From a virus (lineage: Duplodnaviria; Caudoviricetes), in the IMG/VR virus record IMGVR_UViG_3300045243_000060, positions 1 to 61,888 of that record: DNA of 61,888 bases. One strand, written 5' to 3'. The notes below the pieces were generated by a model, which was given only the letters and a program-made list of their open reading frames with translations, was not told where the DNA came from and made no database searches. Positions within the stretch are counted from its first letter, which is position 1. Each line of letters starts with the position of its first letter. Of the stretch, positions 1 through 61,494 are shown in pieces. Both the position numbers and the translations under genes were made by a program.

Positions 1-396
1 GCCGCCGAGTGCGCCGTGGAGCGGTGGCAGGACGCGCTCCATACGTTGCTCGTGCCGCAATGGCGCGCGTTCGCTGGCGCTCCGCCGCAACCTTGCCAGC
101 ACGACCGCGAGGGCATGCGCCGGGTCAGCAAGCTCGGCGCCGAGTTGGGCGTCAAGGTTCGGTACCACTGGTGCCACGCGGCGACCGGCGCGGAGGCGGA
201 CGGGTACATGACCCGCAACGACCAACTCGCGCTCAACTGCTCGCACCTCATCGCGTTCCCGGCCGGTCCGGACGAGGTACAGCGGAGCGGCGTTTGGGCG
301 ACCGTCCGGCGCGCAGCGCAGCGCCAGCGGCCCGTCAAGATCGTCCCGCTGGACGGTTCGGACGCGTACATCTACAGCCCGTCAGTGGGGCTGTGA
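1..396 (+). CDS. SLOG/DUF2493-like nucleotide-binding protein, 5' part outside the left edge
   Basis: Frame open from base 1; RNDQL...LIAFP...SGVWATVRRA resembles the RN..m / liAF / S.GT..t...A C-terminal motifs of SLOG proteins; N-terminus probably 61783..61888. Confidence 0.55.
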   Translation, partial: AAECAVERWQDALHTLLVPQWRAFAGAPPQPCQHDREGMRRVSKLGAELGVKVRYHWCHAATGAEADGYMTRNDQLALNCSHLIAFPAGPDEVQRSGVWATVRRAAQRQRPVKIVPLDGSDAYIYSPSVGL

Positions 397-551
397 TGGG
401 GCGCGTGAGCCTGACGACCGTGGACCGGCAGACGTTCTGCATCTACTGCCAGCAGGACTTCAAGCGGCCGTCCGACCTGGCGTGGCACATTCTCAAGAAG
501 CACCCTGGAACGTACGCAGCGCACCACGTCGTCCGGCGCGTAACGCGCTAG
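396..551 (+). CDS. Small C2H2 zinc-finger protein (51 aa)
   Basis: ATG overlaps upstream TGA; CIYCQQDFKRPSDLAWHILKKH fits C-x2-C-x3-F-x5-L-x2-H-x4-H. Confidence 0.65.
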   Translation: MGRVSLTTVDRQTFCIYCQQDFKRPSDLAWHILKKHPGTYAAHHVVRRVTR

Positions 552-586
552 CGCACCCACCGGCGGAAGGTGCCAAAACCGCCAAG

Positions 587-615
587 CATCCGTCCGCCGG
601 ATGGCCTATAGTTCC
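587..615 (+). promoter_or_regulatory. Conserved phage promoter-like element
   Basis: catccgtccgccggatggcctatagttcc; related copies at 19392, 22171, 22890 and 60202, each intergenic and upstream of an RBS; TATAGT -10-like box. Confidence 0.6.
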
Positions 616-657
616 TAGTTGATGTTGGCTACTCAATCAACAAAGGAGTCGGATCAG

Positions 658-2670
658 ATGAGCGCAGCGAAGAACAGCACCCACCCCGTCGTCGCAGAGC
701 TTTCCCGCGACGGCGACCGGATCAACGTGACGTTCGATTACAGCCCGCAGCGGGTCAAGCTCGCCAAGCGGGTCAGCGGCTACACGTTCGTGAACAAGGA
801 GAAGGCTCGCGCAGCGGGTCTGACCGACGCGTTCTGGCGCTACCCGCTAGACCTAGTAACCGGCCGTCGACTCCGCGAGGTATTCGGCGACGAGCTAGGG
901 ATCGGCCCCAAGCTCCGCGCGTGGGGCAACAAGGAAGTCACCAAGGAGCAGAAGCTCGCGACCCTCAGTGACGCGGACGACGCCGACCTGAGCAGCGACG
1001 CGCTCCGCAAGCTCGTCAAGGGCACCAAGAACGAGAACGGCGACCCGTTCAAGCTCCGCCCCTATCAGAAGGCGGACATCAGGTTCGCCAGCGAGGGCAA
1101 GGCGGTCATCATCGCCAATCAGCCCCGGACGGGTAAGACCATCACGGCCATCGGCACGGTCATCGAGTCCGGTCTGGAGTACGGCTGGCACCTGGTGTTC
1201 GCGCCGGTCGCTAGCCTCCGGACCGTCTGGGAGGCTGGCATCAAGGACGCGTACCGGATGGCCGGTCTGGAAGAGCCGGTCGTGCTGACGGGCGACACGC
1301 CGAACGAGCGCAAGAAGGCGATCCAGAGGGCAGCCGAGATGGCTGACGCTGGCGAGTCGTTCTACCTCGTTCTGAACCCTTACCACGCGCGGCTCAAGCG
1401 AGTCAGCCACGGCAAGGGCGACCAGATCACGTTCACCCAGGAGCCGGTCAGCCCTGAGCTGATGGAGATCGACTGGGACAGCATGATCATTGACGAGTAC
1501 CACCTCATGGGCCTGTCGAATCCGATCACGCTCGGCGCGAAGGGTGTGAACGAGATCGCGACGACGACACAGCCTGAGCTAAGGCTCGCGCTGTCCGGTA
1601 CGCCCATGGGTGGCAAGCCCATCAAGCTCTGGGGCGCGCTGCACTTCCTCAACCCGGAGGAGTTCACGAGTCGCTGGAATTGGGCCAAGCACTGGCTGGT
1701 CGTCAAGTCGGAGTCGCATCCGGGCGGCAGCCACTCGGTCATCGAGGGCATCATGCCCGGCCGTGAGGTGGACTTCTACGATCACCTGAAGCCCTACCTC
1801 GTTCGACGGACTCAGCGCGAGGCGCTGCCGGGTCTGCCTGAGATGCCGAGGGTCAACGTCTGGTGCGACATGACGCCGCGTCAGTCGGATCAGTACCAGA
1901 CCTTCCTCACCGAGGCGGAGTGGCGGATGGACGACGCCGAGGAAGCCGGTCGCTTGACCGCGACGAACGTACTCGCGGAGTACACCCGCCTCAAGCAGTT
2001 CGCGGACGGGTTCTGCGAAGTCCACAAGACGGGCAAGGTGCTCGAGAACGGTCTGGACCAGCTGCGGGTCAGCCAGACGCCGGACAGCGGCAAGCTCATC
2101 CAGCTGGTCGAGAAGCTCCGCGAGGAGAACGTCATCACCGAGTCCGACGACGACGACGAGCCACGCTGCGCGCTGATCGCCAGCCAGTTCAACGACATGG
2201 TGAAGATGGTCGCCGGTGAACTGACCCGGATGGGCGTTCCGAACGCGATCATCGGGAAGTACGGCGCGAAGGGCGCGGAGCGCGACGCGCTGGTGAAGGC
2301 GTTCCAGGAGCAGACCGAGGGTGCGCCTCGCGTTCTGCTGATGAACACCCTGGCCGGTACCGCGTTGACCCTGGACCGGGCTAGCAGCGTCCACATGCTG
2401 GACGAGACCTGGGTGCCCGACAATCAGGAGCAGATGGAGAACCGGGCGACCGCTACCACGCAGGAAGCGATTGACCGGGGCTGCGGCGTCTACTACTACC
2501 GGACCCGCAACACCGTCGAGTCGGCCATCCAGAAGAAGGTCGCTGGTAAGGCGATGAACAATCACACCATCCTGGACCTGCGACGCGAGATGAAGCGTCA
2601 AGCGGAGCAGGAAGAGCGTCGGCTGGCGGGCGAGCGCGCCGACGACGGCAAGGCGATGCTGGCAGAGTAG
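658..2670 (+). CDS. SNF2/SF2 DNA helicase
   Basis: LRPYQ, NQPRTGKT (motif I), IIDEYH (II), LSGTP (III), C-terminal helicase domain; RBS aaggag upstream. Confidence 0.85.
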   Translation: MSAAKNSTHPVVAELSRDGDRINVTFDYSPQRVKLAKRVSGYTFVNKEKARAAGLTDAFWRYPLDLVTGRRLREVFGDELGIGPKLRAWGNKEVTKEQKLATLSDADDADLSSDALRKLVKGTKNENGDPFKLRPYQKADIRFASEGKAVIIANQPRTGKTITAIGTVIESGLEYGWHLVFAPVASLRTVWEAGIKDAYRMAGLEEPVVLTGDTPNERKKAIQRAAEMADAGESFYLVLNPYHARLKRVSHGKGDQITFTQEPVSPELMEIDWDSMIIDEYHLMGLSNPITLGAKGVNEIATTTQPELRLALSGTPMGGKPIKLWGALHFLNPEEFTSRWNWAKHWLVVKSESHPGGSHSVIEGIMPGREVDFYDHLKPYLVRRTQREALPGLPEMPRVNVWCDMTPRQSDQYQTFLTEAEWRMDDAEEAGRLTATNVLAEYTRLKQFADGFCEVHKTGKVLENGLDQLRVSQTPDSGKLIQLVEKLREENVITESDDDDEPRCALIASQFNDMVKMVAGELTRMGVPNAIIGKYGAKGAERDALVKAFQEQTEGAPRVLLMNTLAGTALTLDRASSVHMLDETWVPDNQEQMENRATATTQEAIDRGCGVYYYRTRNTVESAIQKKVAGKAMNNHTILDLRREMKRQAEQEERRLAGERADDGKAMLAE

Positions 2671-2720: not shown

Positions 2721-2778
2721 CGTTCCAGGGTAGCTACCCACGCGACCTTCTCACAGCCCACTAGACGGGCGGAGGTAG

Positions 2779-3012: not shown

Positions 3013-4197
3013 GTGACACCGGCTACTCGGACCCGTCGCAAGGGCGCGACGAAGAAGCGGACAGCGACAACGCAGCGCGAGCGCAAGGGCAAGCCCAAGG
3101 CGTCGGCGCAGGTCGCTCAGGTCCGCACCAGCGAGCGCGCGAGTTGGAACGCTTGCCGCCAGCAGTGGGAGTGGGGGTGGGTCAAACACCTCAAGCCTCG
3201 CGAGACCAAGCCCGCGCTCCGGTTCGGCTCGCTGATCCACGAGGCTCTCGAGATGCGGTACCCGCCGGGCATCAAGCGTGGGCCGCTACCGGCGGAGTCG
3301 TTCGAGAAGCTGTACATCGAAGACCTGGCAGAGGCGGAGCAGACCTGGGGCTTCAGGGCGGACGACCAATGGGAGGACGCGCTTGACGTCGGCGTGGACA
3401 TGATGGAGCGGTACATCGACGAGTACGGCAAGGACGAGGACTGGAAGGTGATCGCCAGCGAGATGACATTCCAGGTGCCGGTGTTCGCGGTCGAGGCGGA
3501 GCCAGGGCTATGGGTTCCGGCGCAGCACGACACGGAGGGCGCCAAGCACCTGTTTGACTACGTCGGAACGATGGACGGCGTTTGGGAGAACCGGATGGAC
3601 GGCGGCATCCGGGTGAACGACTACAAGACTTGCAGCGGCGACCCGGTGAAGGAAGCAGCGTCCAAGTTCACGCTGGACGAGCAGACGACCGCCTACTGGA
3701 CCTGGGGTGTGGAGTGGCTTGAGGCGACGCGGATTCTCAGCCGCCAGCAGATGCAGAAGCTTGACGGGATGTTGTTCACGTTCATGCGCAAGGCGAAGTC
3801 GGACCCGCGACCGCAGGACGCGTTCGGCCGCTACCTCAACAAGCCAACGAAAGCTCAGGAGGAAGCGGGCGAACCCGGCGATGTCAGCAAGAGCCAGCCG
3901 CCACCGTACTTCCATCGTGAGGTGATGTACCGTTCCGACGCGGACCGGAGCAAAGCGCGCCAGCGGGCCATCCGCCAGTTCATCGAGATGGACGCCGCCA
4001 AGCGCCATCCGGAGCGGCTGGTGTACAAGCAGCCCGGTACCGGCTTCCCCCGGCAGGTCTGCGTGGGCTGTGAGTTTCGCGACATGTGCGAGCTACACGA
4101 GATTGACGCCGACTGGGAGAGCCAGCGCGACGCGACGATGACGACCTGGGACCCGTACGACGCCCACGAGGTAGAGCAGGAAGGGAAGTCCAAGTGA
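3013..4197 (+). CDS. PD-(D/E)XK (RecB/Cas4-like) exonuclease
   Basis: SERASWNACRQQW, FGSLIHEALE, GTMDG...VNDYKT, C-terminal CVGCEFRDMC cluster. Confidence 0.8.
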   Translation: MTPATRTRRKGATKKRTATTQRERKGKPKASAQVAQVRTSERASWNACRQQWEWGWVKHLKPRETKPALRFGSLIHEALEMRYPPGIKRGPLPAESFEKLYIEDLAEAEQTWGFRADDQWEDALDVGVDMMERYIDEYGKDEDWKVIASEMTFQVPVFAVEAEPGLWVPAQHDTEGAKHLFDYVGTMDGVWENRMDGGIRVNDYKTCSGDPVKEAASKFTLDEQTTAYWTWGVEWLEATRILSRQQMQKLDGMLFTFMRKAKSDPRPQDAFGRYLNKPTKAQEEAGEPGDVSKSQPPPYFHREVMYRSDADRSKARQRAIRQFIEMDAAKRHPERLVYKQPGTGFPRQVCVGCEFRDMCELHEIDADWESQRDATMTTWDPYDAHEVEQEGKSK

Positions 4198-4491: not shown

Positions 4492-5283
4492 GTGGCTAGC
4501 GCAACACCGCCCGCAAGCCTCCGCCCGGTCGGAGGAGAGGGGAAGCTGCGGCTTCTCGTGTTCGGCGTCGCTGGCGCCGGCAAGACGCGGCTAGCAGGCA
4601 CCGGGGCCAACTCGCTCATCATCCACCCGCCGACGGACAGCACGGCGAGCATCCACGAGTCCGACAACGTAGACGAGTTGGTCGTGGAGCACCACGTTGA
4701 TATGGCGGACGCGTTCGCGTACTGCCAGCAGGGTGGCGCCGACGAGTACGACTGGGTATGGCTGGACGGCATCACGCTCTGGGAGGACCACGGTCTGGAC
4801 GACGTGTTCCAGCAGGTCGTGGACCTGAAGCCTCAGCGCGAGGCGCACGGCCCGGACAAGGGCGAGTACGGCGTCAATCGGCGCCGCATCATGAAGTGGA
4901 TCAGGGACATGGTCGGGCTGGCGCAAGCTGGTCACTTCAACCTTGGAGTGACGGCGCTGCCCTGGAACGTCTATGACCCGGTCCGCGAGGACGACATCTG
5001 GATGCCGTCAGTCGGACCGCGCGACGGTAGCCTGAGCCACAAGCTCTGCGGCTACATGAACGTGGTCGCGTATCTCCGCATCGTGGAGCGCGACGACAAG
5101 CCCGCGACCCGCAAGCTGTACACGCAGGCACCGGGCTTCTACGGCAAGGATCAGATCAGTCCGGACGGCGAGTCGCTGAACGGGCTACCGGACCCAACGA
5201 TGACTAGCATCACGGCAGCATTGAACGGCGGCACCCAGACGGGTCGTCGCCGGACCAAACGACCGGCGCGCAAGCGTCGATAG
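4492..5283 (+). CDS. AAA_24/Sak4-like ATPase (recombination)
   Basis: Walker A GVAGAGKT, Walker B WVWLDG; lies between nuclease and SSB. Confidence 0.75.
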   Translation: MASATPPASLRPVGGEGKLRLLVFGVAGAGKTRLAGTGANSLIIHPPTDSTASIHESDNVDELVVEHHVDMADAFAYCQQGGADEYDWVWLDGITLWEDHGLDDVFQQVVDLKPQREAHGPDKGEYGVNRRRIMKWIRDMVGLAQAGHFNLGVTALPWNVYDPVREDDIWMPSVGPRDGSLSHKLCGYMNVVAYLRIVERDDKPATRKLYTQAPGFYGKDQISPDGESLNGLPDPTMTSITAALNGGTQTGRRRTKRPARKRR

Positions 5284-5302: not shown

Positions 5303-6094
5303 GTGACCAAGCTCAGCTATGACATGACCGATGTCGAGGACAGCGGAGGCGACTTCACGCCGCTGCCGGTCGGCGTGTACAACTGCACCATCGACAGCCT
5401 GGAGCTAACCGAGTCGCAGGCTGGCAACGAGATGATCAAGGTGACCTACAAGGTCAAGGACGGCGAGCACGCCGGTCGCCTGATCTGGGACAACGTCGTC
5501 TTGTCCGTGGACTGGAAGTACCTCCAGTTCCTCAAGGCGGTCGGCGTCGTCACCCCGAACGGCAAGAAGCGCAAGGGCGAGTTCACCCTGGAGAGCTTCC
5601 AGGGCGACAAGGTCCAGGTCCGCGTCAAGCACGAGGCGGACAACCGCCCGGAGCAGAAGCAGGCGGACGGTACCTTCCCGCAGCGCCACCGCGTCCAGTC
5701 GGTGAACCCGATGCCCGACGACATCGACGACGATGACGACGAGCCAGACGCGACAGCGGACGACGGCGGCGACGAGGTATGGTCGTGGGCCGATCTGGAG
5801 GACGCGACGCTGGACGAGCTAACGGAGATCAACGAGGACGAGGAGTTGGGCGTCCGGATCACCAGCAAGTCCAAGGTCGAGACCGTCCGTGGCAAGGTCG
5901 CGGAGGCGTTGGGCGTCCTGGAGACGGAGACGGACGACGACGATGACGACGACGACGACGGGTACGACGACATGGACAAGGCGGCTCTGAAGGCAGAGGC
6001 CAAGGAGCGCAGCCTGTCCACGGCCGGTTCGGAGCGGACGCTCATCAGGCGTCTGCGGAAGGACGACGAGGGCGACGGTGGCGAACCTTTCTGA
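5303..6094 (+). CDS. DUF669-like ssDNA-binding protein with acidic linker and SAP-like tail
   Basis: FTPLPVGVYNCTI...SQAGNEMIKVTYKV...GRLIWD; acidic tracts; ends EPF. Confidence 0.7.
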   Translation: MTKLSYDMTDVEDSGGDFTPLPVGVYNCTIDSLELTESQAGNEMIKVTYKVKDGEHAGRLIWDNVVLSVDWKYLQFLKAVGVVTPNGKKRKGEFTLESFQGDKVQVRVKHEADNRPEQKQADGTFPQRHRVQSVNPMPDDIDDDDDEPDATADDGGDEVWSWADLEDATLDELTEINEDEELGVRITSKSKVETVRGKVAEALGVLETETDDDDDDDDDGYDDMDKAALKAEAKERSLSTAGSERTLIRRLRKDDEGDGGEPF

Positions 6095-6347: not shown

Positions 6348-7307
6348 ATGAATCATCCGGCAGCAACCGATGAGCAACTGGACGCGCTGGCGCCGTATGC
6401 CGGCGTGCCGGGCTCAGCGGAGATGAGGGCTATCGCGGAGCGTACGGGTGGCGAGATTGACCTGTACTGTCCGGTCCATCCGGACACCCGGCGCTCCGCG
6501 CAACTCAACCCCGCCAAGGGCGCGTTCTACTGCCACGCCGAGGGCAAGGGCCACTCGGTCCGCGTCCTCATTGAGCGACGTGACGAGTGGATCCCCGCGA
6601 CCGGCCGGGTGAAGCGGGTCCGGGTCAGCGACTTCAAGCCTCATAACGGCCACGACCCGCGCGCAGCACTCAGCCCGGACGACTGCGCCCGCTGGCATCG
6701 CGGGCTGTTGATGAATGAGGAGGCGCTGGACTGGCTCTGGTCGGAGCGCGGCATTGGCCTTCTCACAGCCAAGCGCGCGGGGCTAGGGCTGGACGGGCGG
6801 ATGCTCAAGATCCCGGTGTACGACCCGGACCGGAGCTTGGCGAACATCCGGACGTACGACCCGTCGCCACGAGCGGACCGGCGGAAGATTTGGAGCGTGA
6901 AGGGCTGCGGGTCGCCGCCACAGCTATACCCGGTCGGGGTATTGACCAGGCTGACGCGACCCGGCGCCAGCATCTTGTTCTGCGAGGGCGAGTGGGACGC
7001 GCTGTTAGCCCTACAGTCAGGTGTCATGGCTGTGACCAGGACGGCAGCCGCTCGGTCGCTCTGGCGCGAGGCGTGGAGTGACCTGTTCGTCGGGCGCCAT
7101 GTCTACGTCTGCCACGACGCGGACACACCGGGGCAGATGGGCAACGAGATCGTCGCCGAGTCGTTGCGAAGCTCAGCGGCCAGCGTCCACTACTGCCGGT
7201 TGCCCTACCCGGTACAGCCCAAGCACGGTAAGGACGTCAGCGACTTGATAATGGATCACGGGCCGATGGCCCTAGCTAGCGTCATGATTGACGCGGAGAG
7301 GATGTAA
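6348..7307 (+). CDS. DNA primase (zinc-binding + TOPRIM)
   Basis: CPVHPD...FYCH zinc motif; FCEGEWDAL, CHDADTPG, KDVSD. Confidence 0.85.
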   Translation: MNHPAATDEQLDALAPYAGVPGSAEMRAIAERTGGEIDLYCPVHPDTRRSAQLNPAKGAFYCHAEGKGHSVRVLIERRDEWIPATGRVKRVRVSDFKPHNGHDPRAALSPDDCARWHRGLLMNEEALDWLWSERGIGLLTAKRAGLGLDGRMLKIPVYDPDRSLANIRTYDPSPRADRRKIWSVKGCGSPPQLYPVGVLTRLTRPGASILFCEGEWDALLALQSGVMAVTRTAAARSLWREAWSDLFVGRHVYVCHDADTPGQMGNEIVAESLRSSAASVHYCRLPYPVQPKHGKDVSDLIMDHGPMALASVMIDAERM

Positions 7308-42753: not shown

Positions 42754-43052
42754 TGGCCTTCTCATTCAACATGCTCAACGTCGAGGCGATTGCCAAGGGC
42801 ATCGCCGGGGAAGCAGCGTTCCAGGCGTTCGCGGGATCGACGGCCAAGGACGTCGCGGACCACGCCAAGGAGATCGCGCCGGGTGATGAGGATCAGTACA
42901 TCCGTTCGGAGGGCGACCGGGTCTTGTACCAGAACCCACGAGGCGTCTGGCACATCGTAGAGTTTGGATCGGTCAACAATCCAGCTTACAGTCCGCTGAG
43001 GCGGGCTGTGGTAGCGGCCGGGCTGCGGCTCGAGAACGCTCCCAAACCGTAA
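42753..43052 (+). CDS. HK97 gp10-like neck protein
   Basis: AKEIAP...WHIVEFGS.NNPA..PLRRA. Confidence 0.65.
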   Translation: MAFSFNMLNVEAIAKGIAGEAAFQAFAGSTAKDVADHAKEIAPGDEDQYIRSEGDRVLYQNPRGVWHIVEFGSVNNPAYSPLRRAVVAAGLRLENAPKP

Positions 43053-50867: not shown

Positions 50868-53557
50868 TGGCAGCCCCGGCCGTCCTGACCAACCTGGGCA
50901 TCTCCAAGGGCAAGCGCGACCCGGCGACCGGAGGCTTCTTCACCGCCGATCCGATTAGCGTTGGGTCGAGTGGTACGCCGAAAGCTCTTCTCCTGGCTGT
51001 GTCCGTCCGGATGCCGTACAACGGGCTTGGCGACATCACGTCGAACATGGTCATCGCGGACAGCGAGGGCAACAGCTACACCCAAGCCATCGGCATGTGG
51101 TGGAGTCCGGCTGGCACCGCCGTCGGCGAGGCAGCGTCCATCTGGTACTGCAACGACCCGAATCCAATCACGACTGGAACGGTTTGGGGCATTACCTCCG
51201 GAATGGCCGGTGTTCCGGTACTCGGTTCTTACGTCATGCGCGTTCTCGAGCTTGATATGGAAGTCGCGCCGGTTCCATTCAGCGAGCGAAAGCAAAACCT
51301 CAACTTTGATACGGCGCCGACGGAGATCTCCGGCACCCCCGCTGGCGCGACTGACATGCTCTGGGTCGGGCTGCATACGCTACTCGGACCGGACACCGAC
51401 ACCGACACGATCACGTCCACCGGGTTCACGCTGTTGCCAGCGGGTACGGCGGTGTACGGAACGGCCGGTGACACGGCGGCATCGAACGTGACGCAGAAGC
51501 TCGGTTACAAACAGGTCACAGCCAGCGCAGCGCAGCAGACCTTCAATGGCACGCTCGGAGTGGCACGCTCGTGGAACGCTGTCATCATCGCGTTCAAGTC
51601 GAATCCTCCGCCACCGAGCACCCCAACTGCCTGGTACCCAAGCAGTCCGTTCAACGACACCGTCGCGTCGAGTTCCCCGGCGGACCGCGCCGACTCGGAC
51701 CAGATCATCACCAGCATGTTCAGTCGCGGCAACGGGCTGGTGTCCGCGCTGACGGTCGGCCAGGAAGACTCAGTCAAGGACTTCAAGCACCCCATCTACT
51801 TCGCGAGCGGAGGCGACCCGCAGTTCACGCTGTCCGGCGGATGGGACCCGACTTTCACTATTGCCGGCGCCCAGTGGGACAACCCGGACATCGCGGGCGA
51901 CGTGATCCGGATTCCGGCCGGGGCTGTACCGGCTGGTGGCTCGGACTCATCGATGTTCGTCGTCCAACCGGACGGCACCGAGTACGACCTGTGGGATTGC
52001 CAGCACACCAGGCCTGGTGGCGTCCAGAAGTTTGGGTTTGGTACCAAGGGCGTGTTCACCGGGTCCGGCGACGACGGGCTTGGCGTCACGGTCGGCACTA
52101 ACCGACGCGGGGGCATTACGGCAGCGGGCTTCCTCGGCGGACTCGGCGTTATCCGGTACGCGGAGCTTGCCAGCGGTAACATCCCGCACGCCATGTTCGC
52201 GGCGATCAACGGTTGGCACGGTCGCGTCTGGCCGTCGATGCTCAGCGGCGGAGGTACCGGCGACATCGGCGCCGGTCACAACGCTCCGCCGATGGGTGCC
52301 TGGCTCCAGTACGACCGGCCCGTCTCGGAGATCAACGCGCTGGCGGTACCGGACTGGATCAAGACGATCCTGAAGTGTCTGCAGAAGTACGGCGCCTACA
52401 TCGGCGACAACGGCGGCAGCACCCTCGCGTTCCAGTTTGAGTCCGGCGACGACTACACCTACAACGGTGGCACCAACCCTTGGATTCAGTACGCGCAAGC
52501 TCAGGGCATCTATTCGGAGATCGACGCGGACACCGGCTTCCTGACCTACTACTTTGGCTTGGACACGCCGACGCTCGGCCCGATCATCGACTGGAAGAAC
52601 TACCTGAAGGTCTTGGACCCGTCGGCCATCGCTCCGCCACCACCGGACGACTTCGATCCCGACACCGCCGATCCAATCGACAGCGGCAGCGGCAACGGCG
52701 CGGCGACGACCGACAACATCCACGTGAACCTCCCGGACGACGACTACAGGGTGTATGTGAAGACGGCGCAGAACGTCGGCGGCACCAAGTATGAGTCGGA
52801 TTGGGCGTACAGTGCATTCACGATCCAGACGTTGCGGCCGTCGATACCGAACCTTGCGGCCGATCCGAACGACACCGAGGCTCGGATTGAGATCGACGTC
52901 ACGCACGGCAGCGGCGGCGACGTCAATACGACCTACATCCAGATACAGCGGTCCACCGACGACGGCGACACCTGGGTGGACATCCGGACGCTACTCGGCG
53001 GTGGCCTGGTCCTCGCGCCGGACCCGCTGGACTACGACTATGATGTCGGCAACGGCGAGCTTGCGCTGTACCGGGCGCGCGGCGTCCACCAGTTTGTATC
53101 AGGCACGCTGTCGCACTCCGATTGGCAGGTGACTCCGGACCCGGTGGCCTGGGAGTCGGACAGCGCGTGGATCAAGCACGCGACCGAACCGGGCTTGAAC
53201 ATGGCGGTCGGCGTCATCTCACAGCCAGGCAATACGCGGGCAGCGCGGGAGTCCGCTGTGCGGGTCATGGAGCGCGAGCACCCGGTGTTCAGCGGCGACG
53301 TACGCGACGGGCCAACCGGCGAGATCACGTTCGACGTACCAAAGGGCAGCCTGGCGGAGTTCAACGACCTGATCAGCGGCGTTGGCCCGTTCCTGATCCA
53401 GATGCCCCGGACCTGGGAGTGGGCCGACCGTTGGGTGGTGTTCGGCGACCTGGACAGCCAGCGGCCAGCGGACCGGGCTTGGGTGCCGGTGAACTTCAAG
53501 AACCTGACGTGGACCGAGGTTGACACCCCGACCGCAAACCTGTTGGCGTGGACGTAG
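50867..53557 (+). CDS. Minor tail protein: inserted domains plus distal-tail-like C-terminus
   Basis: TAATG coupling; contains paralogue of the 25689 domain; C-terminal WIKH...WTEVD region. Confidence 0.7.
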   Translation: MAAPAVLTNLGISKGKRDPATGGFFTADPISVGSSGTPKALLLAVSVRMPYNGLGDITSNMVIADSEGNSYTQAIGMWWSPAGTAVGEAASIWYCNDPNPITTGTVWGITSGMAGVPVLGSYVMRVLELDMEVAPVPFSERKQNLNFDTAPTEISGTPAGATDMLWVGLHTLLGPDTDTDTITSTGFTLLPAGTAVYGTAGDTAASNVTQKLGYKQVTASAAQQTFNGTLGVARSWNAVIIAFKSNPPPPSTPTAWYPSSPFNDTVASSSPADRADSDQIITSMFSRGNGLVSALTVGQEDSVKDFKHPIYFASGGDPQFTLSGGWDPTFTIAGAQWDNPDIAGDVIRIPAGAVPAGGSDSSMFVVQPDGTEYDLWDCQHTRPGGVQKFGFGTKGVFTGSGDDGLGVTVGTNRRGGITAAGFLGGLGVIRYAELASGNIPHAMFAAINGWHGRVWPSMLSGGGTGDIGAGHNAPPMGAWLQYDRPVSEINALAVPDWIKTILKCLQKYGAYIGDNGGSTLAFQFESGDDYTYNGGTNPWIQYAQAQGIYSEIDADTGFLTYYFGLDTPTLGPIIDWKNYLKVLDPSAIAPPPPDDFDPDTADPIDSGSGNGAATTDNIHVNLPDDDYRVYVKTAQNVGGTKYESDWAYSAFTIQTLRPSIPNLAADPNDTEARIEIDVTHGSGGDVNTTYIQIQRSTDDGDTWVDIRTLLGGGLVLAPDPLDYDYDVGNGELALYRARGVHQFVSGTLSHSDWQVTPDPVAWESDSAWIKHATEPGLNMAVGVISQPGNTRAARESAVRVMEREHPVFSGDVRDGPTGEITFDVPKGSLAEFNDLISGVGPFLIQMPRTWEWADRWVVFGDLDSQRPADRAWVPVNFKNLTWTEVDTPTANLLAWT

Positions 53558-54690
53558 CGGAACGCGAGCGGCTGTTCTCCTCCCCGGACGCGGTGTCGGA
53601 GCGGTTCGTGGACGCCGTGAATAACGTCCACCGGGTCGCGAGCTACTTTGAGGTGATGGACGGCGACGACGTACTGGCGACCATCGAGGCCATCGACGGC
53701 AGCGTTACGTACGACGCGCAGGCGGAGGTTCGGTCGTCGCTAGACTTGCAGGTGGCTGTGACCAACGATGACATCATCCCGGTCGATGCCGACTCGCTGC
53801 TTGTGCCTTATGGCAACGACATCCGGGCCTGGAGCGGCATCCGGTTCGACGACTTGGACGAGTTGATCCCGATGGGACGATACCGCATCCAGACGGCATC
53901 GGTCAGCGATACCGGCAGCGACCTGACACTCCAGGTATCGGGCCAGGATCGTTCGTGTCGAATCATCGAGGCAGCGTTTGAGCAGGACATGACCTGGCTG
54001 GCCGGGTCGCAGACGGCTCTCGAGATCGTACGTGGCATCATCTCCGGCATCTACCCAGACGCGGACATGGACACCTTCTTCACCATCGACGACTTCGCTA
54101 CGCCATCCATCCAGGCGTCCGCTGGCGACGACCCTTGGGCCTTTGTCCAGGGCATCGCTACGTCCGTTGGGGCGGAGGCGTACTTCAACGATGACGGCGT
54201 GCCGGTCATGACGCCGACGCCGACAGCGACCGGCGACCCGGACCGGCACTTCAACGAGGGTGAGGTCTTGACGGCGGCTGGCAAGGAGTGGACCCGCGAG
54301 GGAATCGCAAACAAGGTGTTGGTGACCGGCGATAGCGGCTCGCTGACGACGCCGATCACCGGGACGGCGCTGGACAACAACCCCAACTCGCCCACTTACT
54401 ACTACGGCAAGTTTGGCAAGGTGCCGTTCTTCTACTCGTCTCAGTTCATCACGACCGACATCCAGGCGGGCGACGCAACGAGCGGGATCCTCCAGACGAA
54501 GATCGGACTGGACCAACAGATCGACTTTGGCTCGCTGATCGACCCGCGAGCGCGGGCGCTTGACATCATCGGCATCAGCCGCGAGCGTATCGGCGTCGAT
54601 GAGACGCACGTACTAGACGCCGTATCCATCCCCCTAATGGGCGACGGTACGATGACCGGGCAGACGCGCAAGACCCAGGTGTTCTCATGA
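53548..54690 (+). CDS. Minor tail/baseplate hub protein (DUF5047-like)
   Basis: GSVTYDA...VR, PYGN, DRS, SPTYYYGKFGKVPFFYSS. Confidence 0.75.
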   Translation: MDVAERERLFSSPDAVSERFVDAVNNVHRVASYFEVMDGDDVLATIEAIDGSVTYDAQAEVRSSLDLQVAVTNDDIIPVDADSLLVPYGNDIRAWSGIRFDDLDELIPMGRYRIQTASVSDTGSDLTLQVSGQDRSCRIIEAAFEQDMTWLAGSQTALEIVRGIISGIYPDADMDTFFTIDDFATPSIQASAGDDPWAFVQGIATSVGAEAYFNDDGVPVMTPTPTATGDPDRHFNEGEVLTAAGKEWTREGIANKVLVTGDSGSLTTPITGTALDNNPNSPTYYYGKFGKVPFFYSSQFITTDIQAGDATSGILQTKIGLDQQIDFGSLIDPRARALDIIGISRERIGVDETHVLDAVSIPLMGDGTMTGQTRKTQVFS

Positions 54691-57131
54691 CAGCGGGTAC
54701 GGCAGCGATGGAGAACGTCGGGCGCCGACTCGCTGCGCTTGAGCAGCAGGTCACCAAGCTCAAGTTGACTTCTCGCGCTGGTGGCGGCGACCCGCATAGC
54801 AAGAACACCGATCCCCGGCGGAGGAACTTCGTCGTGGACTTTGGCGGCGAGGGCATCATCGGCGCCGATAACCTGGGCGCCTGGAACAAAGCCATCGATA
54901 GCTACAACGCTGGCGAGTACGACGAGCTTTGGTGTCCGGCCGGACGGTACGTCCAGAGCGGCATACCAAAAGCTTGGCTGGCGACGGGTGACCCTCCGAT
55001 CCAAGGCGTACAGCAACAGGCATTGCGCGGTTGGATTCACGGCGCGGGCCAGGCGACGGAGCTTGTCATGTCGGGCGGCGCCGGTACGTTCTTCACGGTG
55101 GGGTCTGGTAAGGAAACGTTCTTGGACTTCGCGCTCACCCAAAAGGACCCGCCGTTCCGGGGCATGTCATACTTCTCCATCAGCGACTTCAAGCTCACCT
55201 GTACCGATGAGAACAGCGTCGAGGGCGAAGTGTCGGCGATAGTAACTGGTACCAATCGGGTCTACCTGAGCAGCGTCGCGGGCTTGCACGTCGGAGACCC
55301 CATCAAGTTCTACGGACCCGGCTTCGCCGTCGATAACACGGGCGCGATCTCGTCGCCGACCGGGATCGCATCGGAATACTTCGACAGCACTCAGCACAAC
55401 GCGACGACGTACTACATCGCGGGGATCTTGCCCGCGAGCGATCCGACCGACCCCAACTCGATCACGCTCAGCACAGCCCCGCCCCCCGGCGGAGCGACGG
55501 TCACGATCTCGCGGTCGATCATCACCGGCGCCGGCAATGGCGCTGCGGTCGGATCGTTCGTCCGGCTGAACACAGCCACCACGCCGTCGGGCGGGCAGAA
55601 CCCCATCGTGTTGAACAAGGGCGGCCACCTGACCGTCGAGAACATCACCTGCAACAAGACGAGCGGCATCGTCTCGGTCGGCACCGGCGACCTGAACGAC
55701 GTCAACGAACCGTACGGCGTCAACCCCAGTCGCGCGATGGACAATCCAATAGCGACAGCGGCCCGGACGATCACGGCCGTGGACACCGGGTTGGAGAAGC
55801 TGACCACCGGCGCCGCGCATGGCCTGGCTGTGAACGACCCGGTGGTCTTCACCGATGACCACCCGCTGCCGGGGAACATCGTAGACGGGCTGGACGGCGG
55901 CTATGCGCCGTACTTGGTCGAGACGGTACCAAGTCCGACGACCTTCACCCTCAAGAACCGCCAGGACAACGTCGGCGCGGCTCGCGGAGCGCAGCACAAC
56001 ATCAGTACTGCTGTGACCGGAGGTACGTTCTACACCGGCAGCTATGACGCGCGGGTCCAGAGGTACTGGGTCAGCAACGTCATCGGCTCGCTGAACGGCG
56101 GCACTCCGACGGCGAACCGGATTGACATCGAGAATGGTACGTCCGGACACTATGACAACGTCCAGTGCGCGACGAGCGACCTTGGCGGAGGGCGAGTCAT
56201 CTACTGTCACCCGCCAGGCAGCCCTGGAGCTTCCAACAACGACCAACATTGGTTCACCGACGTGTTCGTTCAGGGCGGCGAGTCGTTCTGGATTGACATC
56301 GACGTAACGTACGGCGACTGCTTCAACTGGAACCTGAAGGGCTGCGTCATGGACGGCGCGACGAACGGCACCGTGTACGCTCACGCTAGCAGCGGCGGCA
56401 CCGGCAACACGATCACCGACCTATGGCTTGACCATTGCCACTGTAGCTCGCGGGCTGGCGTGACGCTCCACTTTGACAAGAGCGATACGACCGGCATCTG
56501 GCGCAACATCGAGATCAACGGAGGGCGCTACAAGTTCCAGGACAACTTGGGGTTGTACATGCACGGCGCCGGACTCAGCGGCGTCCAGACGTTCCTTGCG
56601 CATGACGTCGCCTTCCTCCAGGATCAGATCACGATCATCGACAGCATCGCCAACTCCAACGAGCTAGTTTCGACAGCGGGCAACGACGGTACGGGCCACG
56701 ACCTACAGGTTGGCGATCTCATTCGGTTCTCTACGGTGAGCCATACCTTTGGGGCGAACGTAACCGCCGGTCCGACGTATTGCGTGAAGGAGGTCACCAG
56801 CAAGACGCGCTTCACCGTGACGACCAATCAGACGGGCGGAGGCGTCGGCCCACGAGCGGACATCACCGCCAACGGCGGCGCCGGGGTGCTGCGGGGTAAG
56901 CTGGACGCGGCAGCGATCCTCAACGGCGCCGCGAATGATGTCCGGATTCACGACTGCGAGTTCAACGGGTTCAACTCAGCGTACATGGAGTGCGGCAACG
57001 CGATCCAAGCTACGTCGCTGGCGAGCTACAACGTCCATGACAACAACGCGACCGGGCTTAGGACGGCGACGTTCGCGACCGGACTCACGGACACCGCCGC
57101 GCATCCGTTCCACCACAACAGTCTCAACTAG
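54687..57131 (+). CDS. Tailspike/receptor-binding protein with pectin-lyase-like beta-helix
   Basis: NFVVDFGGEG...D...A...AID, PAGRY, IHGAG..T; Asn/Gly/Thr-rich coils. Confidence 0.7.
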   Translation: MTAGTAAMENVGRRLAALEQQVTKLKLTSRAGGGDPHSKNTDPRRRNFVVDFGGEGIIGADNLGAWNKAIDSYNAGEYDELWCPAGRYVQSGIPKAWLATGDPPIQGVQQQALRGWIHGAGQATELVMSGGAGTFFTVGSGKETFLDFALTQKDPPFRGMSYFSISDFKLTCTDENSVEGEVSAIVTGTNRVYLSSVAGLHVGDPIKFYGPGFAVDNTGAISSPTGIASEYFDSTQHNATTYYIAGILPASDPTDPNSITLSTAPPPGGATVTISRSIITGAGNGAAVGSFVRLNTATTPSGGQNPIVLNKGGHLTVENITCNKTSGIVSVGTGDLNDVNEPYGVNPSRAMDNPIATAARTITAVDTGLEKLTTGAAHGLAVNDPVVFTDDHPLPGNIVDGLDGGYAPYLVETVPSPTTFTLKNRQDNVGAARGAQHNISTAVTGGTFYTGSYDARVQRYWVSNVIGSLNGGTPTANRIDIENGTSGHYDNVQCATSDLGGGRVIYCHPPGSPGASNNDQHWFTDVFVQGGESFWIDIDVTYGDCFNWNLKGCVMDGATNGTVYAHASSGGTGNTITDLWLDHCHCSSRAGVTLHFDKSDTTGIWRNIEINGGRYKFQDNLGLYMHGAGLSGVQTFLAHDVAFLQDQITIIDSIANSNELVSTAGNDGTGHDLQVGDLIRFSTVSHTFGANVTAGPTYCVKEVTSKTRFTVTTNQTGGGVGPRADITANGGAGVLRGKLDAAAILNGAANDVRIHDCEFNGFNSAYMECGNAIQATSLASYNVHDNNATGLRTATFATGLTDTAAHPFHHNSLN

Positions 57132-57139
57132 GAGGCGAC

Positions 57140-57754
57140 ATGCCCAAGGGTAAGCATCAGCACGACGGCGCTGACGGTCCGCAACAGCGGTACAAATGGG
57201 GCGGCTACGGGTCCGTCTGGCGGTGGGCGCTAGGCCACGGCATCCACCGATGGATCAAGGCTCGCAACTGGGCGCGCCGTCGAGCGAAGCAGGCGAAGAA
57301 TCCCGCCGGGTTCAAGAAGGCGGACGAGGCGTACACCAAGCGCATCAAGTGGATTCGCGAACACAACGACCCCAAGCCTCCGCATTCGGACGGCAGCCTC
57401 ATCGTGACGGTCGATGGCAAGCCGGTCGCCGGTTGGATCGGTCGCGCTGCGCTCGCGGCTCGCGCCGCTGGCGCTTGGAGTGGCGTGATGCTGTCCGGGT
57501 TCCGGTCGCCGGAATACAGCGAGCAGCTTTGCTACGGCATCTGCGGCCAGCCCTCTTGCCCTGGGCTGTGTGCAGGCCGTGCGAGCAATCACAGTTGCCC
57601 GCCGACGGCGACCTGTAAGCCCTATGAGGGCGCTGGCGACTTCACCGACGCGGCGAGGCTCTGCGCCTGGTGTCGAGCGCACGGCATCCCGCTCCACGGC
57701 GGAGGCGAGTTCCTGCCCAACGACGTCAATCACTGTAGCTACAGTGGGAGGTAG
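57140..57754 (+). CDS. Endolysin, peptidase M15-like
   Basis: SGFRS..Q, ASNH...GAGD...D.NH zinc-peptidase motifs; after the tail genes. Confidence 0.65.
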   Translation: MPKGKHQHDGADGPQQRYKWGGYGSVWRWALGHGIHRWIKARNWARRRAKQAKNPAGFKKADEAYTKRIKWIREHNDPKPPHSDGSLIVTVDGKPVAGWIGRAALAARAAGAWSGVMLSGFRSPEYSEQLCYGICGQPSCPGLCAGRASNHSCPPTATCKPYEGAGDFTDAARLCAWCRAHGIPLHGGGEFLPNDVNHCSYSGR

Positions 57755-57830: not shown

Positions 57831-58303
57831 GCGAGTCCCGCAATCATTACCTACACGATCTCAACGACGCGCTCGGCGTACCGCTGTCGCGCCGCAAGAC
57901 TGTCGCTCGCGCGGAGATGGCCTGGTGGCAAAGCGAGGGCGGAGCGACTAGCTCGGAGGACTTGCACGGCGCGATCCCTCCGGGCCATGAGACGGACTGG
58001 AACGCGTTCAACACGACAAAGGTCTGGGGCGCTTCTCACAGCCAACCCGGCAACTCGGTCCCGGTCCAGGTCTACGCGAACCGGGCGGACGGCATCGCCG
58101 CGACGGTGTCCACGCTGCGCGAACCGCGCTACGCCGATCTGATGAAGGCGATCATGACACCGGGCGTCCACGCCAAGACGATCTGTAAGCGCATCGTCGA
58201 GTCCGACTGGGGGACGGTCGAGCATCCGATGTACGACGTGCTGGACGACATCGTCAAGCGCGGGCTGTACGACAGCTACAACCTCCGGGTCTACCCGTCA
58301 TGA
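57827..58303 (+). CDS. Lysozyme-like cell-wall hydrolase
   Basis: AWWQSEGG...WNAFNTT...VQVY....DGIAAT..TL...Y...W pattern. Confidence 0.55.
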   Translation: MSESRNHYLHDLNDALGVPLSRRKTVARAEMAWWQSEGGATSSEDLHGAIPPGHETDWNAFNTTKVWGASHSQPGNSVPVQVYANRADGIAATVSTLREPRYADLMKAIMTPGVHAKTICKRIVESDWGTVEHPMYDVLDDIVKRGLYDSYNLRVYPS

Positions 58304-59176: not shown

Positions 59177-59686
59177 GTGAGGATGACCCGCCCAGTTCTC
59201 GCTGCACTCGCGTTGTTCGCGGGCGCGGCGTTCATAGTGCCAAGCAGCGCGACCGCCGTTCCGATCCATCAGCACATCACCATCAATACGCCGGTCGGAC
59301 CGGACATCACGGTGACACGCGTCGTCAACGTCGCTCCAAAGGACAGCGACGACGACGGGTGCGCGGACTCGGATGACGACTACAACGGACCCGGTTGCCA
59401 TCCGCCGCCACCGCCACCGCTACCGGCGGCATTGCCGACGACGGCACCGGCGTCGAGTACCGAGTCAACAGCGACCGGCGGCTACACGATCCCCGACTAC
59501 ATCGTTCAATGCGAGTCGGGCGGCGACTACAACGCGCAGAACGCGTCCGGCGCGTATGGCGCGTACCAGATCATGCCGGACACCGCCAGCAACTATGGCT
59601 GTGACCTGTCGTCGCCAGCCGGACAGGACGCATGCGCTGCCGACATCTACGCCGACGTGGGCACGTCCGCGTGGGACTGCGGATGA
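59177..59686 (+). CDS. Secreted Rpf-like lytic transglycosylase
   Basis: Signal peptide, Pro/Thr linker, IVQCESGG...GAYGAYQIM..T...QD..A......W.CG. Confidence 0.8.
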   Translation: MRMTRPVLAALALFAGAAFIVPSSATAVPIHQHITINTPVGPDITVTRVVNVAPKDSDDDGCADSDDDYNGPGCHPPPPPPLPAALPTTAPASSTESTATGGYTIPDYIVQCESGGDYNAQNASGAYGAYQIMPDTASNYGCDLSSPAGQDACAADIYADVGTSAWDCG

Positions 59687-60201: not shown

Positions 60202-60262
60202 GTTCCGCCGCTGGATGCCCTATAGTTCTTGGTGTTGAGCACTACTATCAAGAAGGAGTCGG
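60202..60262 (+). promoter_or_regulatory. Conserved phage promoter-like element plus leader
   Basis: ccgctggatgccctatagttc...atcaagaaggagtcgga mirrors 587-653. Confidence 0.6.
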
Positions 60263-60263
60263 A

Positions 60264-60929
60264 ATGAGCCTCTCACCCACCACCAACGACCGCCCCGCCA
60301 GCGACAAGCAGGTCAGCTACATCCGCGACCTGTTTGACAAGGCGGACCTGTTCGCGGACTCGGAGTTCTTTGACCGGGTCAACGCGATGGACGCGACCGA
60401 GTACGCCGCCTACATCGAGCACCTCAAGGATCAGGTCGGCGACCCGGACGACATCAGCAAGCCCCGCATCGGACGCGCTCGCGCCAGCCAGATCATCGAG
60501 CGGCTCAAGGCGCTGCCGCGTAAGCGCGAGGCGCAGTCGTTCCGGAAGGGCAACCGCGACGAGGACATCGTCAACTGGCGAGTCGGCATGTACGTCCACG
60601 AGGGTCCGGACGGACTCGGTGACGTGTTCCGCGTCTACCTCGGACAGCAGAGCGGCAAGAACCTCGTCAAGCAGCTAGTCGATACCGGCCAGCCGCACCC
60701 GGAGGACGACCGCATCACCCTCCACGACTGGCAGTACGTCGGCGCGGCAGCGGGCTACAAGGGTCAGCGGGCGCTACGTGGCGCGAGGCTGATGACGCTG
60801 GCGGAGGCGAAGGAGTACGGGCGCATGACCGGCTCATGCTGCCGCTGCGGGCGGAGGCTGGACGTTCCGGAGTCCGTCGAGGCGGGTATCGGCCCGGTCT
60901 GCGCCGGCAAGGTCGAGGAGTGGGCATGA
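60264..60929 (+). CDS. DUF6011-domain protein
   Basis: ASDKQ..YI..L N-terminus; C-terminal CCRCGRRL...S...GIGPVC. Confidence 0.7.
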   Translation: MSLSPTTNDRPASDKQVSYIRDLFDKADLFADSEFFDRVNAMDATEYAAYIEHLKDQVGDPDDISKPRIGRARASQIIERLKALPRKREAQSFRKGNRDEDIVNWRVGMYVHEGPDGLGDVFRVYLGQQSGKNLVKQLVDTGQPHPEDDRITLHDWQYVGAAAGYKGQRALRGARLMTLAEAKEYGRMTGSCCRCGRRLDVPESVEAGIGPVCAGKVEEWA

Positions 60930-61093
60930 ACACCTACCGGCGACGTACCTTCAACCGGATGGTCTGCCAGCTTCGCGCCGGCACGCGACCAAGCAAGATC
61001 GTCGGCGACCGCGACATCCTCCAGTACGCGATGGAGTACGTGGAGGGCGAGCGGTACGCGGCGGAGCGGCGCAAGGCGAAGGAGGCATCATGA
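60926..61093 (+). CDS. Hypothetical protein
   Basis: ATGA coupling on both sides. Confidence 0.45.
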   Translation: MNTYRRRTFNRMVCQLRAGTRPSKIVGDRDILQYAMEYVEGERYAAERRKAKEAS

Positions 61094-61494
61094 CGCTGAC
61101 GCCGGAACAACGAGCGGCCATCTACCACGACAACATCAAGAAGGCGGACTGCGGCGTGATCGCGCTCCAGTCCGTCACCGGGCTGACGTACGCGGAGGCG
61201 GACGAGCTTCTCACAGCCCATGGCTACAAGGGCGGAGCGGCGGCGATGGAAGGCACGCCGCGAGGCACCATTGAGAAGTCGCTGCGCTCCATCGGCTACG
61301 GCGTCCAGACGGTCGCTGTCGAGGAAGGGTCCACGCCGAGCATCTTCTGGATGGAGCGGCATCCGGGCCGGTTCCTACTCTACACGCCGGGTCACGTCAG
61401 CACCATTGTGGACGGACGACCTTACAACGCAGGTATCGGCGGTAGCCCTCTCGAGAGCGTCGTCAAAATAACCCCACCCAAGGAGGACGACTAG
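61090..61494 (+). CDS. Hypothetical protein with papain-like Cys/His motifs
   Basis: DCGVIAL...TGLTY...GHVSTIVDG. Confidence 0.5.
   Translation: MTLTPEQRAAIYHDNIKKADCGVIALQSVTGLTYAEADELLTAHGYKGGAAAMEGTPRGTIEKSLRSIGYGVQTVAVEEGSTPSIFWMERHPGRFLLYTPGHVSTIVDGRPYNAGIGGSPLESVVKITPPKEDD

Follow-up and report, generated by a model that had tools for sequence, protein, structure and literature searches.

Genome-wide selected words such as Chi, uptake sequences, KOPS and stoperators have each revealed a machine that tracks along DNA. The Chi site of E. coli is GCTGGTGG, DNA uptake sequences (USS/DUS) mark a bacterial genome, and the stoperators of cluster A mycobacteriophages, which are temperate, are 13-bp repressor sites dispersed in genes and oriented with transcription. 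The sites of T7 gp4 and of DnaG-type primases have a 3-nt core, extending up to 5 nt with the primer-coding bases. Here we describe the heptamer GGCTGTG and its commonest extension, the octamer GGCTGTGA, in the genome of an uncultured soil phage (Duplodnaviria; Caudoviricetes; IMG/VR virus record IMGVR_UViG_3300045243_000060, positions 1 to 61,888, estimated to be 93% complete); the whole stretch of 61,888 bases is referred to as the window. The word is selected at the DNA level throughout the window, and we give about an even chance (roughly 0.5) to its serving as a signal to the replication and recombination apparatus that the phage itself encodes.

Comparison with the described systems shows likeness and difference in each case. 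Chi and Chi-rich phage genomes, of which phage LLS is an example in the available text of PMC12315714, offer an asymmetric G/T-rich octamer that is enriched in phage DNA and selected for density rather than position, as is the case here. Unlike GGCTGTG, Chi is a host word and is abundant in phages devoid of Rec modules, whereas the present word is absent as an enriched word from the sampled hosts and the phage has a Rec module. As with stoperators, there are dozens of asymmetric sites, many of them inside the genes of an actinophage and putatively meant for a phage-encoded protein; unlike stoperators, they stand 27 times sense and 21 times antisense, the core is 7-8 bp, and no integrase or repressor was recognised in 50 proteins of the window compared with Pfam, which are a part of its open reading frames (ORFs). 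Like an uptake sequence, GGCTGTG resembles a 'self' word running through coding sequence in all frames, but it marks a phage clade only, and not the 401 bacterial genomes sampled. In primase sites, too, the word is short and asymmetric, a zinc module reads it on one strand and copies recur at Okazaki distances, and the phage has a DnaG-type primase; however, no described primase site comes near the specificity of the strict core of 7-8 nt, GGCTGTG tracks a separate zinc-ribbon protein, and word-poor relatives have a primase too. Flank effects in primase recognition are described in the accessible part of PMC8599759. Literature searches with GGCTGTGA, TCACAGCC, GGCTGTG, CACAGCC, CTGGCGGA and TCCGCCAG returned no phage or bacterial paper, supplements being outside the search, and those on over-represented phage octamers, primase recognition and repeated motifs of actinobacteriophages found no description of the GGCTGTG word.

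The word and its statistical excess

The octamer GGCTGTGA occurs 35 times in the window (21 copies on the plus and 14 on the minus strand; 0.57 per kb). An earlier annotation made by a model from the letters of the window, hereafter the sequence-only reading, had listed these copies, and all 35 of its coordinates and strands are exact; its seven exact occurrences of the 11-mer TTCTCACAGCC / GGCTGTGAGAA, which is the octamer plus GAA, were likewise found where it had placed them, and its rough expectation was 2-3 copies. Dinucleotide-preserving shuffles give 2.40 (n = 100; standard deviation 1.60, maximum 7). Under a Markov-3 model 1.6 copies are expected, and the octamer ranks first among the 8-mers of the window by z-score. 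The Markov and codon-shuffled null models that had been suggested as a check were both run, and the 35 copies lie outside the range of 300 per-gene synonymous-codon shuffles (mean 6.8, standard deviation 1.6, maximum 13), a null that leaves the intergenic copies fixed and depends on genes called by third-position GC (GC3), a rough method, nearly all of them on the plus strand. Given that the codon-preserving count is far below the observed one, the excess is real.

The strict unit is the heptamer GGCTGTG, present in 53 copies (32 plus, 21 minus) against about 6 (6.0) expected and 14.3 under codon-preserving shuffles. All of its single-base variants, at positions 1-7, are at background counts. 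The base that follows, at position 8, is A in 35 copies, G in 8, T in 7 and C in 3. Upstream of the octamer, position -1 is T in 22/35 and G in 9/35, and the four bases on the 3' side have the consensus S-M-W-R, the preferred form in the window being T-GGCTGTGA-S-M-W-R; two extended forms occur, one GGCTGTGACCAAC-like and the other GGCTGTGAGAAG-like. The GGCTGTG(A) word is real and strict. The sites are given below, first the octamers GGCTGTGA and then the core-only copies of GGCTGTG, in which position 8 is not A.

389..396, plus strand, octamer; ORF 1-396 ends on its TGA, which overlaps the C2H2 ORF's ATG
2751..2758, minus strand, octamer; intergenic, 81 nt after the SNF2 gene
4066..4073, plus strand, octamer; exonuclease gene (G-C-E)
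6763..6770, minus strand, octamer; primase gene (L-T-A)
7028..7035, plus strand, octamer; primase gene (A-V)
10809..10816, plus strand, octamer; DnaE at KPIFGCE, via TGT (TGC in G002 and G003)
11035..11042, minus strand, octamer; DnaE
11580..11587, plus strand, octamer; DnaE
13201..13208, minus strand, octamer; DnaE
14987..14994, minus strand, octamer; ThyX-like gene
15171..15178, plus strand, octamer; ThyX-like gene
21699..21706, plus strand, octamer; intergenic
22156..22163, plus strand, octamer; intergenic, ~100 nt upstream of the ATG of the zinc-ribbon gene
24890..24897, plus strand, octamer
25185..25192, minus strand, octamer
25823..25830, plus strand, octamer
27614..27621, plus strand, octamer; TerL
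30283..30290, minus strand, octamer; portal/MuF overlap
30882..30889, plus strand, octamer; MuF-like gene
32504..32511, plus strand, octamer
36604..36611, plus strand, octamer
38115..38122, minus strand, octamer
40531..40538, minus strand, octamer; intergenic by the GC3-based gene calls
41317..41324, plus strand, octamer
42633..42640, plus strand, octamer
44375..44382, minus strand, octamer
44640..44647, plus strand, octamer; tape measure gene, the sole site at the same position in G001
48981..48988, plus strand, octamer; tape measure gene
51516..51523, minus strand, octamer
53219..53226, minus strand, octamer
53754..53761, plus strand, octamer
55826..55833, plus strand, octamer
58036..58043, minus strand, octamer
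59597..59604, plus strand, octamer; Rpf-like gene
61211..61218, minus strand, octamer
1568..1574, minus strand, core only; same position in G002 and G003
11210..11216, plus strand, core only
15979..15985, minus strand, core only
16213..16219, plus strand, core only
18462..18468, plus strand, core only
18588..18594, minus strand, core only
19304..19310, plus strand, core only
20728..20734, plus strand, core only
29178..29184, plus strand, core only
36024..36030, minus strand, core only
36681..36687, plus strand, core only
39225..39231, plus strand, core only
43004..43010, plus strand, core only
46839..46845, minus strand, core only
50995..51001, plus strand, core only
55472..55478, minus strand, core only
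55571..55577, minus strand, core only
57564..57570, plus strand, core only

Another sequence, the palindrome TCTCGAGA, is in mild excess in the window, with seven sites (3246, 14802, 27410, 45192, 54018, 58431 and 61449) against 1.56 expected from shuffles (maximum 6).

Coding context

Thirty of the 35 octamers lie within called genes, the other five falling between genes or on a gene boundary. Genic copies are translated as A-V, G-C-[DE], [LFV]-T-A, S-Q-P or H-S, using every usable frame on both strands. ACA makes up 7% of the Thr codons of the window, and 10 of the 90 ACA codons fall in GGCTGTGA; the octamer also uses GCT (14% of Ala codons) and TGT (26% of Cys codons). These counts bear out the sequence-only reading, according to which most copies are genic, in various frames and built with the rare codons GCT, ACA and TGT. 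Its view that the word is not oriented with transcription was also correct, since GGCTGTG stands sense in 27 cases, antisense in 21 and between genes in 5. Sites are often created by synonymous change; for example, the conserved DnaE motif KPIFGCE is encoded by GGC TGT GAG in the window and by GGC TGC GAG in the relatives G002 and G003. Frames, codon shuffles, and the turnover and spacing described below all support the proposal that this is a DNA-level word: GGCTGTG is selected at the DNA level genome-wide, independently of reading frame and protein sequence.

The heptamer AGTGGGA provides a contrast. It is found in 13 copies in the window (e.g. at 3164, 15604 and 57743) against ~1.5 expected, 12 of them on the sense strand, and its 12 genic copies all have the frame xAG TGG GAx ([KQE]-W-[DE]), the copy at 15604 being located between called genes. 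Given this restriction to the sense strand and to a single frame, AGTGGGA reflects a codon or peptide effect and not a DNA signal, which shows that the tests separate codon-driven words from DNA-level words. High-GC coding DNA does yield words such as AGTGGGA, and GGCTGTG might in the same way be functionless, arising from codon usage, dipeptide content or a bias of mutation. This explanation is hardly credible, given that codon shuffles produce 6.8 octamers and not 35, that the word is carried on both strands, in several frames and by rare codons, that its single-mismatch neighbours are at background, that its spacing is even, and that sister phages of similar composition are without it.

Spacing and turnover of the sites

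The sites are evenly spaced along the window. Those of the plus strand (mean spacing 1.9 kb) have a coefficient of variation of 0.61 (P=0.0014) and those of the minus strand (2.9 kb) one of 0.59 (P=0.0057), while the pooled sites of both strands give 0.75 (P=0.016). Fisher's combination of 12 per-strand tests over seven contigs, in which sets of at least 10 sites were entered, gives P=7.5e-8; among 200 control 6-mers of the window, none reached P<=0.0013, and the median P was 0.68. Since the evenness is greater per strand than pooled in the window, G002, G411 and G412, the reader would be strand-specific or directional.

The sequence-only reading had drawn attention to two pairs of sites, each 265 bp apart (6763/7028 and 44375/44640). 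Both pairs exist, but the two intervals have no common sequence beyond the word, and as the chance of two equal gaps among 34 is ~0.16 by a rough estimate, no weight is given to them.

Site conservation had been put forward as a check, and individual positions are not conserved in relatives. In codon-threaded alignments of orthologues, at ~60% nucleotide identity, the window has one site in common with G001 (of 11 and 12 compared), one with G002 (of 12 and 6) and one with G003 (of 13 and 8). With so few common sites at a maintained density, it is the density that is selected and not the position.

Relatives and the replication module

The window is a mosaic in which positions 1-24000 hold an early module that matches G002, G003 and G411, and positions 25000-50000 a virion module that matches G001. 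The early module comprises an SNF2 helicase, a PD-(D/E)XK exonuclease, an AAA_24 (Sak4-like) protein, a DUF669 protein resembling a single-stranded DNA-binding protein (SSB), a primase of DnaG type, DnaE, a ThyX-like protein, two MazG proteins and an AAA_25 helicase with a winged helix, in the same gene order as in phage PBI1. For the DnaE-like polymerase, identity is 41-44% with the enzymes from Streptomyces phages, Arthrobacter phage Wollypog and cluster D mycobacteriophages, and the terminase TerL is 34-40% identical to terminases of Arthrobacter, Streptomyces and Gordonia phages; no DNA-level relative of the tape-measure region was found among GenBank phages. The genes on which the argument depends are the following.

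4492..5283, plus strand: AAA_24 (Sak4-like) annealase candidate; possible partner of the [DE]PF tip, by analogy only
5303..6094, plus strand: DUF669 SSB-like protein, with an acidic tail ending ...GGEPF
6348..7307, plus strand: DnaG-type primase, with a zinc-binding region and Toprim; alternative reader
10434..13859, plus strand: DnaE-like polymerase, marker of the word-bearing replication-module clade
22263..22757, plus strand: zinc-ribbon candidate reader of 164 aa, with a CxxC...CxxC ribbon, a K/A/P-rich H1-like tail and the tip ...ADPF

For the relatives, expected counts come from the Markov-3 model only, the codon shuffles having been performed on the window. G001, a 24-kb fragment that has only the structural module in common with the window (TerL 75%, capsid 77%), contains 21 heptamers against 3.3 expected. 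G002, G003 and G411 are genomes of 47-49 kb, 98-100% complete, whose virion genes are unrelated to those of the window and which match it in early genes only (DnaE 66-67%, SNF2 54-57%, primase 44-46%); GGCTGTG is the top 7-mer genome-wide in all three, with observed/expected counts of 30/5.2, 38/10.2 and 31/7.0, respectively. The preferred flanks are C-GGCTGTG-CT in G002 and G411 and C-GGCTGTG-[CG] in G003, and GGCTGCG is favoured alongside GGCTGTG in G412 (35/13.3) and G423 (49/15.8). In G421, G422 and G423, further IMG/VR contigs with the zinc-ribbon gene, GGCTGYG is enriched 2-3.6x.

Complete relatives further out on the DnaE tree have GGCTGTG at 7/5.9 (G413), 18/10.1 (G414) and 6/4.2 (G415), and G416-G420, with 12-25 copies per 51-66 kb, show no enrichment. 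Five loci (L117, L131, L158, L165 and L173) have a weak local excess only, their whole records being unenriched (12-25 per 51-66 kb) and without the zinc-ribbon gene. The word goes with a single replication-module clade, irrespective of the structural genes. The DnaE frame of G003 (L014:10001-13345) contains one in-frame stop, which may stem from an insertion, from recoding or from an error of sequencing.

Other lineages have repeated words of their own. In Mycobacterium phage PBI1 (cluster D, NC_008198.1, L183 and L184), CTGGCGGA is spread genome-wide in 39 copies (29 plus, 10 minus) against 5.9 expected; it is not claimed as a parallel case, as it may simply be L-A-E in preferred codons. The prophage-like loci of Nonomuraea and Planomonospora (L032-L039), together with L026, show an apparent excess of GTGTACA (14-18 against ~1.5-2), GTTTAAA (24/0.9 and 14/0.9) and CGACCAC (38/10). 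CCCCTGGA, TGGTTC and GTTTAAAC are possible words of other lineages, taken as leads only.

Host genomes and the Chi-like alternative

The nearest terminases outside the viral collections, at 60-62% identity, belong to metagenome-assembled genomes of Solirubrobacterales (L025-L030 and L099), some of them on contigs of 0.5-2.5 Mb, and the TerL alignment also gave other actinobacterial prophages. The Solirubrobacterales terminases offer a clue to the structural module's host lineage, and the Rpf transglycosylase domain (PF06737) in the window fits an actinobacterial host. The host would be sought in the Actinomycetota, possibly among the Thermoleophilia. A search for the host among genome contigs with the Rpf-like protein of the window found nothing.

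The motif frequency in candidate hosts, another check that had been suggested, gave no over-representation. Five Solirubrobacterales genomes that carry the prophages with the nearest TerL have 26-52 octamers per 2.3-3.0 Mb (~0.01-0.02 per kb), and among 401 Actinomycetota genomes sampled across the phylum, of which 15 unpublished ones are used in aggregate only, the densest has ~0.055 copies per kb, with counts resembling those of the reversed-word control. The TerL-related prophage loci of the candidate hosts show no heptamer excess, observed being close to expected. Judged from these sampled genomes only, GGCTGTG(A) is not a host word.

These data bear on the possibility that the word is a Chi-like signal, which a host helicase-nuclease of the AdnAB or RecBCD type would read on one strand, passing from degradation to recombination or protection. 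Like known Chi sites, it is an asymmetric, G/T-rich sequence of 7-8 nt; it has a 3'-flank preference, and its even per-strand spacing is what would be expected of a signal met by a translocating enzyme. Chi-rich phages do exist, according to the accessible text of two reports (PMC12315714, PMC3784561). However, neither the five candidate hosts nor the 401 Actinomycetota genomes over-represent the word, the prophages with related TerL in those hosts are without it, and it tracks a replication-module clade rather than any visible host signal. Moreover, the phage encodes a Rec module (exonuclease, Sak4-like protein and DUF669 SSB), whereas Chi enrichment in lambdoid phages is described, in the available part of PMC12315714, as going without one. 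A Chi-like role is therefore improbable, and a host Chi or uptake sequence is unlikely given the lack of enrichment in the sampled host genomes. The sequence-only reading had pictured a genome-wide address system, naming Chi-like signals among its possible forms; a word selected at the DNA level stands, while a host Chi-like function is disfavoured by the host counts and by the phage's own Rec module.

A candidate reader

Since the word is found in the phage and its closest relatives and not in bacteria, a phage-encoded machine probably reads it, possibly the newly noticed zinc-ribbon protein, which is predicted to bind DNA. In a gene-content comparison, 22263-22757 is the only window gene found in all word-rich and in no word-poor genomes. 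It occurs in all eight GGCTGYG-rich contigs (the window, G002, G003, G411, G412, G421, G422 and G423; 2.0-8.9x), and a profile search with positive controls, which detected it in G002 and G003, shows it to be absent from eight complete DnaE-module genomes without enrichment (G413-G420). The zinc/H1-like candidate named in the sequence-only reading survives on this pattern, while two others proposed there do not: the C2H2 ORF 396-551 is without a homologue in eight relatives (best E 0.055), and the MuF gene is absent from the word-bearing G002, G003 and G411. Both are rejected as readers, as word-rich relatives are without them.

The C2H2 ORF encodes 51 aa with a classical CxxC...HxxxxH pattern. 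Weaker candidates for the reader are the AAA_25 helicase with its winged helix-turn-helix, a DUF6011 protein and the product of 61090-61494, all absent from the word-rich G412, and the domain at the C-terminus of 19299-20222, which G002, complete and word-rich, does not have. The 134-aa protein of 61090-61494 is common to G002, G003 and G411; its only family match is phrog_3754 (function unassigned), and by eye it resembles a small cysteine peptidase, with Cys in ADCGVIAL and His in GHVSTIVDG.

Gene content also bears on whether the word directs programmed single-strand nicks made by the phage (of the T5, tf or phiKMV type) or a motif-directed base modification. A strict, asymmetric word on both strands is reminiscent of nick-site consensus sequences, and near DnaE there is an unusual nucleotide-metabolism block, with an FAD oxidoreductase-like protein, two MazG proteins and an atypical ThyX. 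Against this, no nickase or DNA-modifying enzyme was recognised among the genes common to the word-rich genomes: the HNH gene (23727-24071) has no homologue in G002, G003 and G411, the sole methyltransferase-like gene (39784-40344) is in a glycan cassette and not in the relatives, and the oxidoreductase is missing from G003. Even spacing is not obviously explained by nicks or modified bases either, and we see little likelihood of such a role.

Among 5.8 billion proteins, 49 belong to the zinc-ribbon family; they are unnamed or annotated as 'hypothetical protein', and none has a Pfam domain. The family pattern has two CxxC motifs ~42 residues apart; two CxxC are found in the window protein and in 46/49 members, and the alignment of homologues covers the zinc ribbon, not the low-complexity tail. 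The zinc-knuckle residues differ across the orthologues of the window, G002 and G412 (CQRCGAKH, CQWCHTKV and CQLCEKKT). A tblastn search of 50,697 phage records with the low-complexity filter on gave no match, IMG/VR has six loci with the gene, and a scan of JGI metagenomes gave four, three on short contigs and one a partial copy on a 714-kb contig. This last locus (L209), presumably bacterial, encodes an 87-aa homologue without the basic tail or the F tip, and the word is unenriched there. No carrier outside the DnaE clade was found in IMG/VR or the JGI metagenomes, and hence the zinc-ribbon gene and the replication module are not uncoupled.

The C-terminus of the family ends in F in 48/49 members and in [DE]PF in 37. 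Called proteins with a [DE]PF end number 2/81 in the window, 2/62 in G002 and 2/61 in G003, and in each case they are the DUF669 SSB-like protein and the zinc-ribbon protein. The final six residues in the SSB of phage HK620 (NDYPPF) are needed for the action of Sak4 on SSB-coated DNA, as stated in the accessible text of PMC5928155, and DUF669 proteins are presented in the available part of PMC13687109 as SSBs that drive the adjoining AAA recombinase. Given these precedents and the common tip, we infer that the zinc-ribbon protein may contact the same partner as the SSB-like protein. A complex prediction for the Sak4-like protein with the last 45 zinc-ribbon residues had a score of 0.00 and a mark of 0.32, giving no verdict. 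The DUF669 SSB-like protein has, in addition, long poly-Asp stretches and, at its C-terminus, a weak SAP-like match that stays under the cut-off of Pfam.

Taken together, the following mechanism may be proposed. Selection would hold GGCTGTG to a given density, with evenly spaced copies on each strand, as a phage-private signal that does not serve host genome maintenance, and the reader would act on one strand or in one direction. The zinc ribbon of 22263-22757 may recognise the word while the H1-like basic tail holds DNA, and the [DE]PF tip could bring an enzyme that partners the SSB (primase, Sak4-like annealase or polymerase) to the sites, which would be landing or priming sites every 2-3 kb per strand, on the Okazaki scale. 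The predicted targets of the orthologues would be T-GGCTGTGA in the window, C-GGCTGTGC in G002 and CGGCTGCG in G412. The zinc-ribbon protein is the leading candidate for the direct reader, although overall this is a tentative prediction and more doubtful than not. More speculative, and in our opinion unlikely, is its role as a detached template-recognition adaptor on exposed single strands, which would hand sites to the primase or annealase through an SSB-mimicking [DE]PF tip. The primase itself, which matches Aquifex DnaG 2au3 (E 1.7e-4, residues 31-148), phrog_47 and Toprim, is a candidate direct reader to which we give a rather small chance.

The same protein could also act without regard to orientation, binding its sites in double-stranded DNA and spreading from them, so that phage and not host DNA is condensed or shielded. 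The histone-H1-like K/A/P-rich tail, the privacy of the word to the phage and the co-occurrence of gene and word would all agree with such nucleation. Nevertheless, an orientation-blind binder does not require evenness to be greater per strand than pooled, as it is in four genomes (the window, G002, G411 and G412), and the conserved SSB-like tip, common to the phage's SSB-like protein, points to contacts with the replisome or recombination machinery, which makes a DNA coat of this type an improbable explanation.

Several points weigh against a reading of GGCTGTG by the zinc-ribbon protein on behalf of the phage's own replication and recombination apparatus. In the DnaE tree all zinc-ribbon carriers form one clade, with the word-poor G413 (L106) as sister, and the co-occurrence of gene and word is a single phylogenetic event; the gene therefore cannot be told apart from whatever else changed on the branch, for example an altered specificity of the primase. 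Known DnaG and T7 primases read 3-5 nt and not a strict word of 7-8 nt. Enrichment is modest in the distant carriers (2.0x for GGCTGTG and 3.1x for GGCTGCG in G423; ~2x in G421), and for all relatives it is limited to Markov-3 expectations. The orientation ratios across the window and its relatives vary (32:21, 24:6, 19:12, 19:19, 22:28 and 32:41), and no single replication polarity fits them. Finally, the AlphaFold2 (AF2) model of the zinc-ribbon protein (mean pLDDT 68, with core residues 11-95 at 77-94) is without a convincing structural relative, and no fold is assigned to it: Foldseek gave no match in PDB at E<=0.001, and the best VIA match, T4 endonuclease VII (Z 3.2, root-mean-square deviation 6.5, 67 aligned), was in the noise range, as were the next ones, a ribosomal chain (Z 3.0) and the Lsr2 dimerisation domain (2.9).

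Significance

GGCTGTG is a phage-owned word that is even on each strand, overrides codon preference and is inherited with the replication module across unrelated virion modules. It makes it possible to test whether the replisomes or recombination systems of viruses rely on sequence addresses in the viral DNA, and it comes with a definite candidate that can be cloned, the zinc-ribbon protein of 164 aa with its family of 49 members, together with a predicted site. If the adaptor role of this protein were true, the initiation of replication or recombination would be restricted to phage DNA, and a viral replisome would possess a sequence-coded rule for self and non-self, spaced on the Okazaki scale and written inside its genes.

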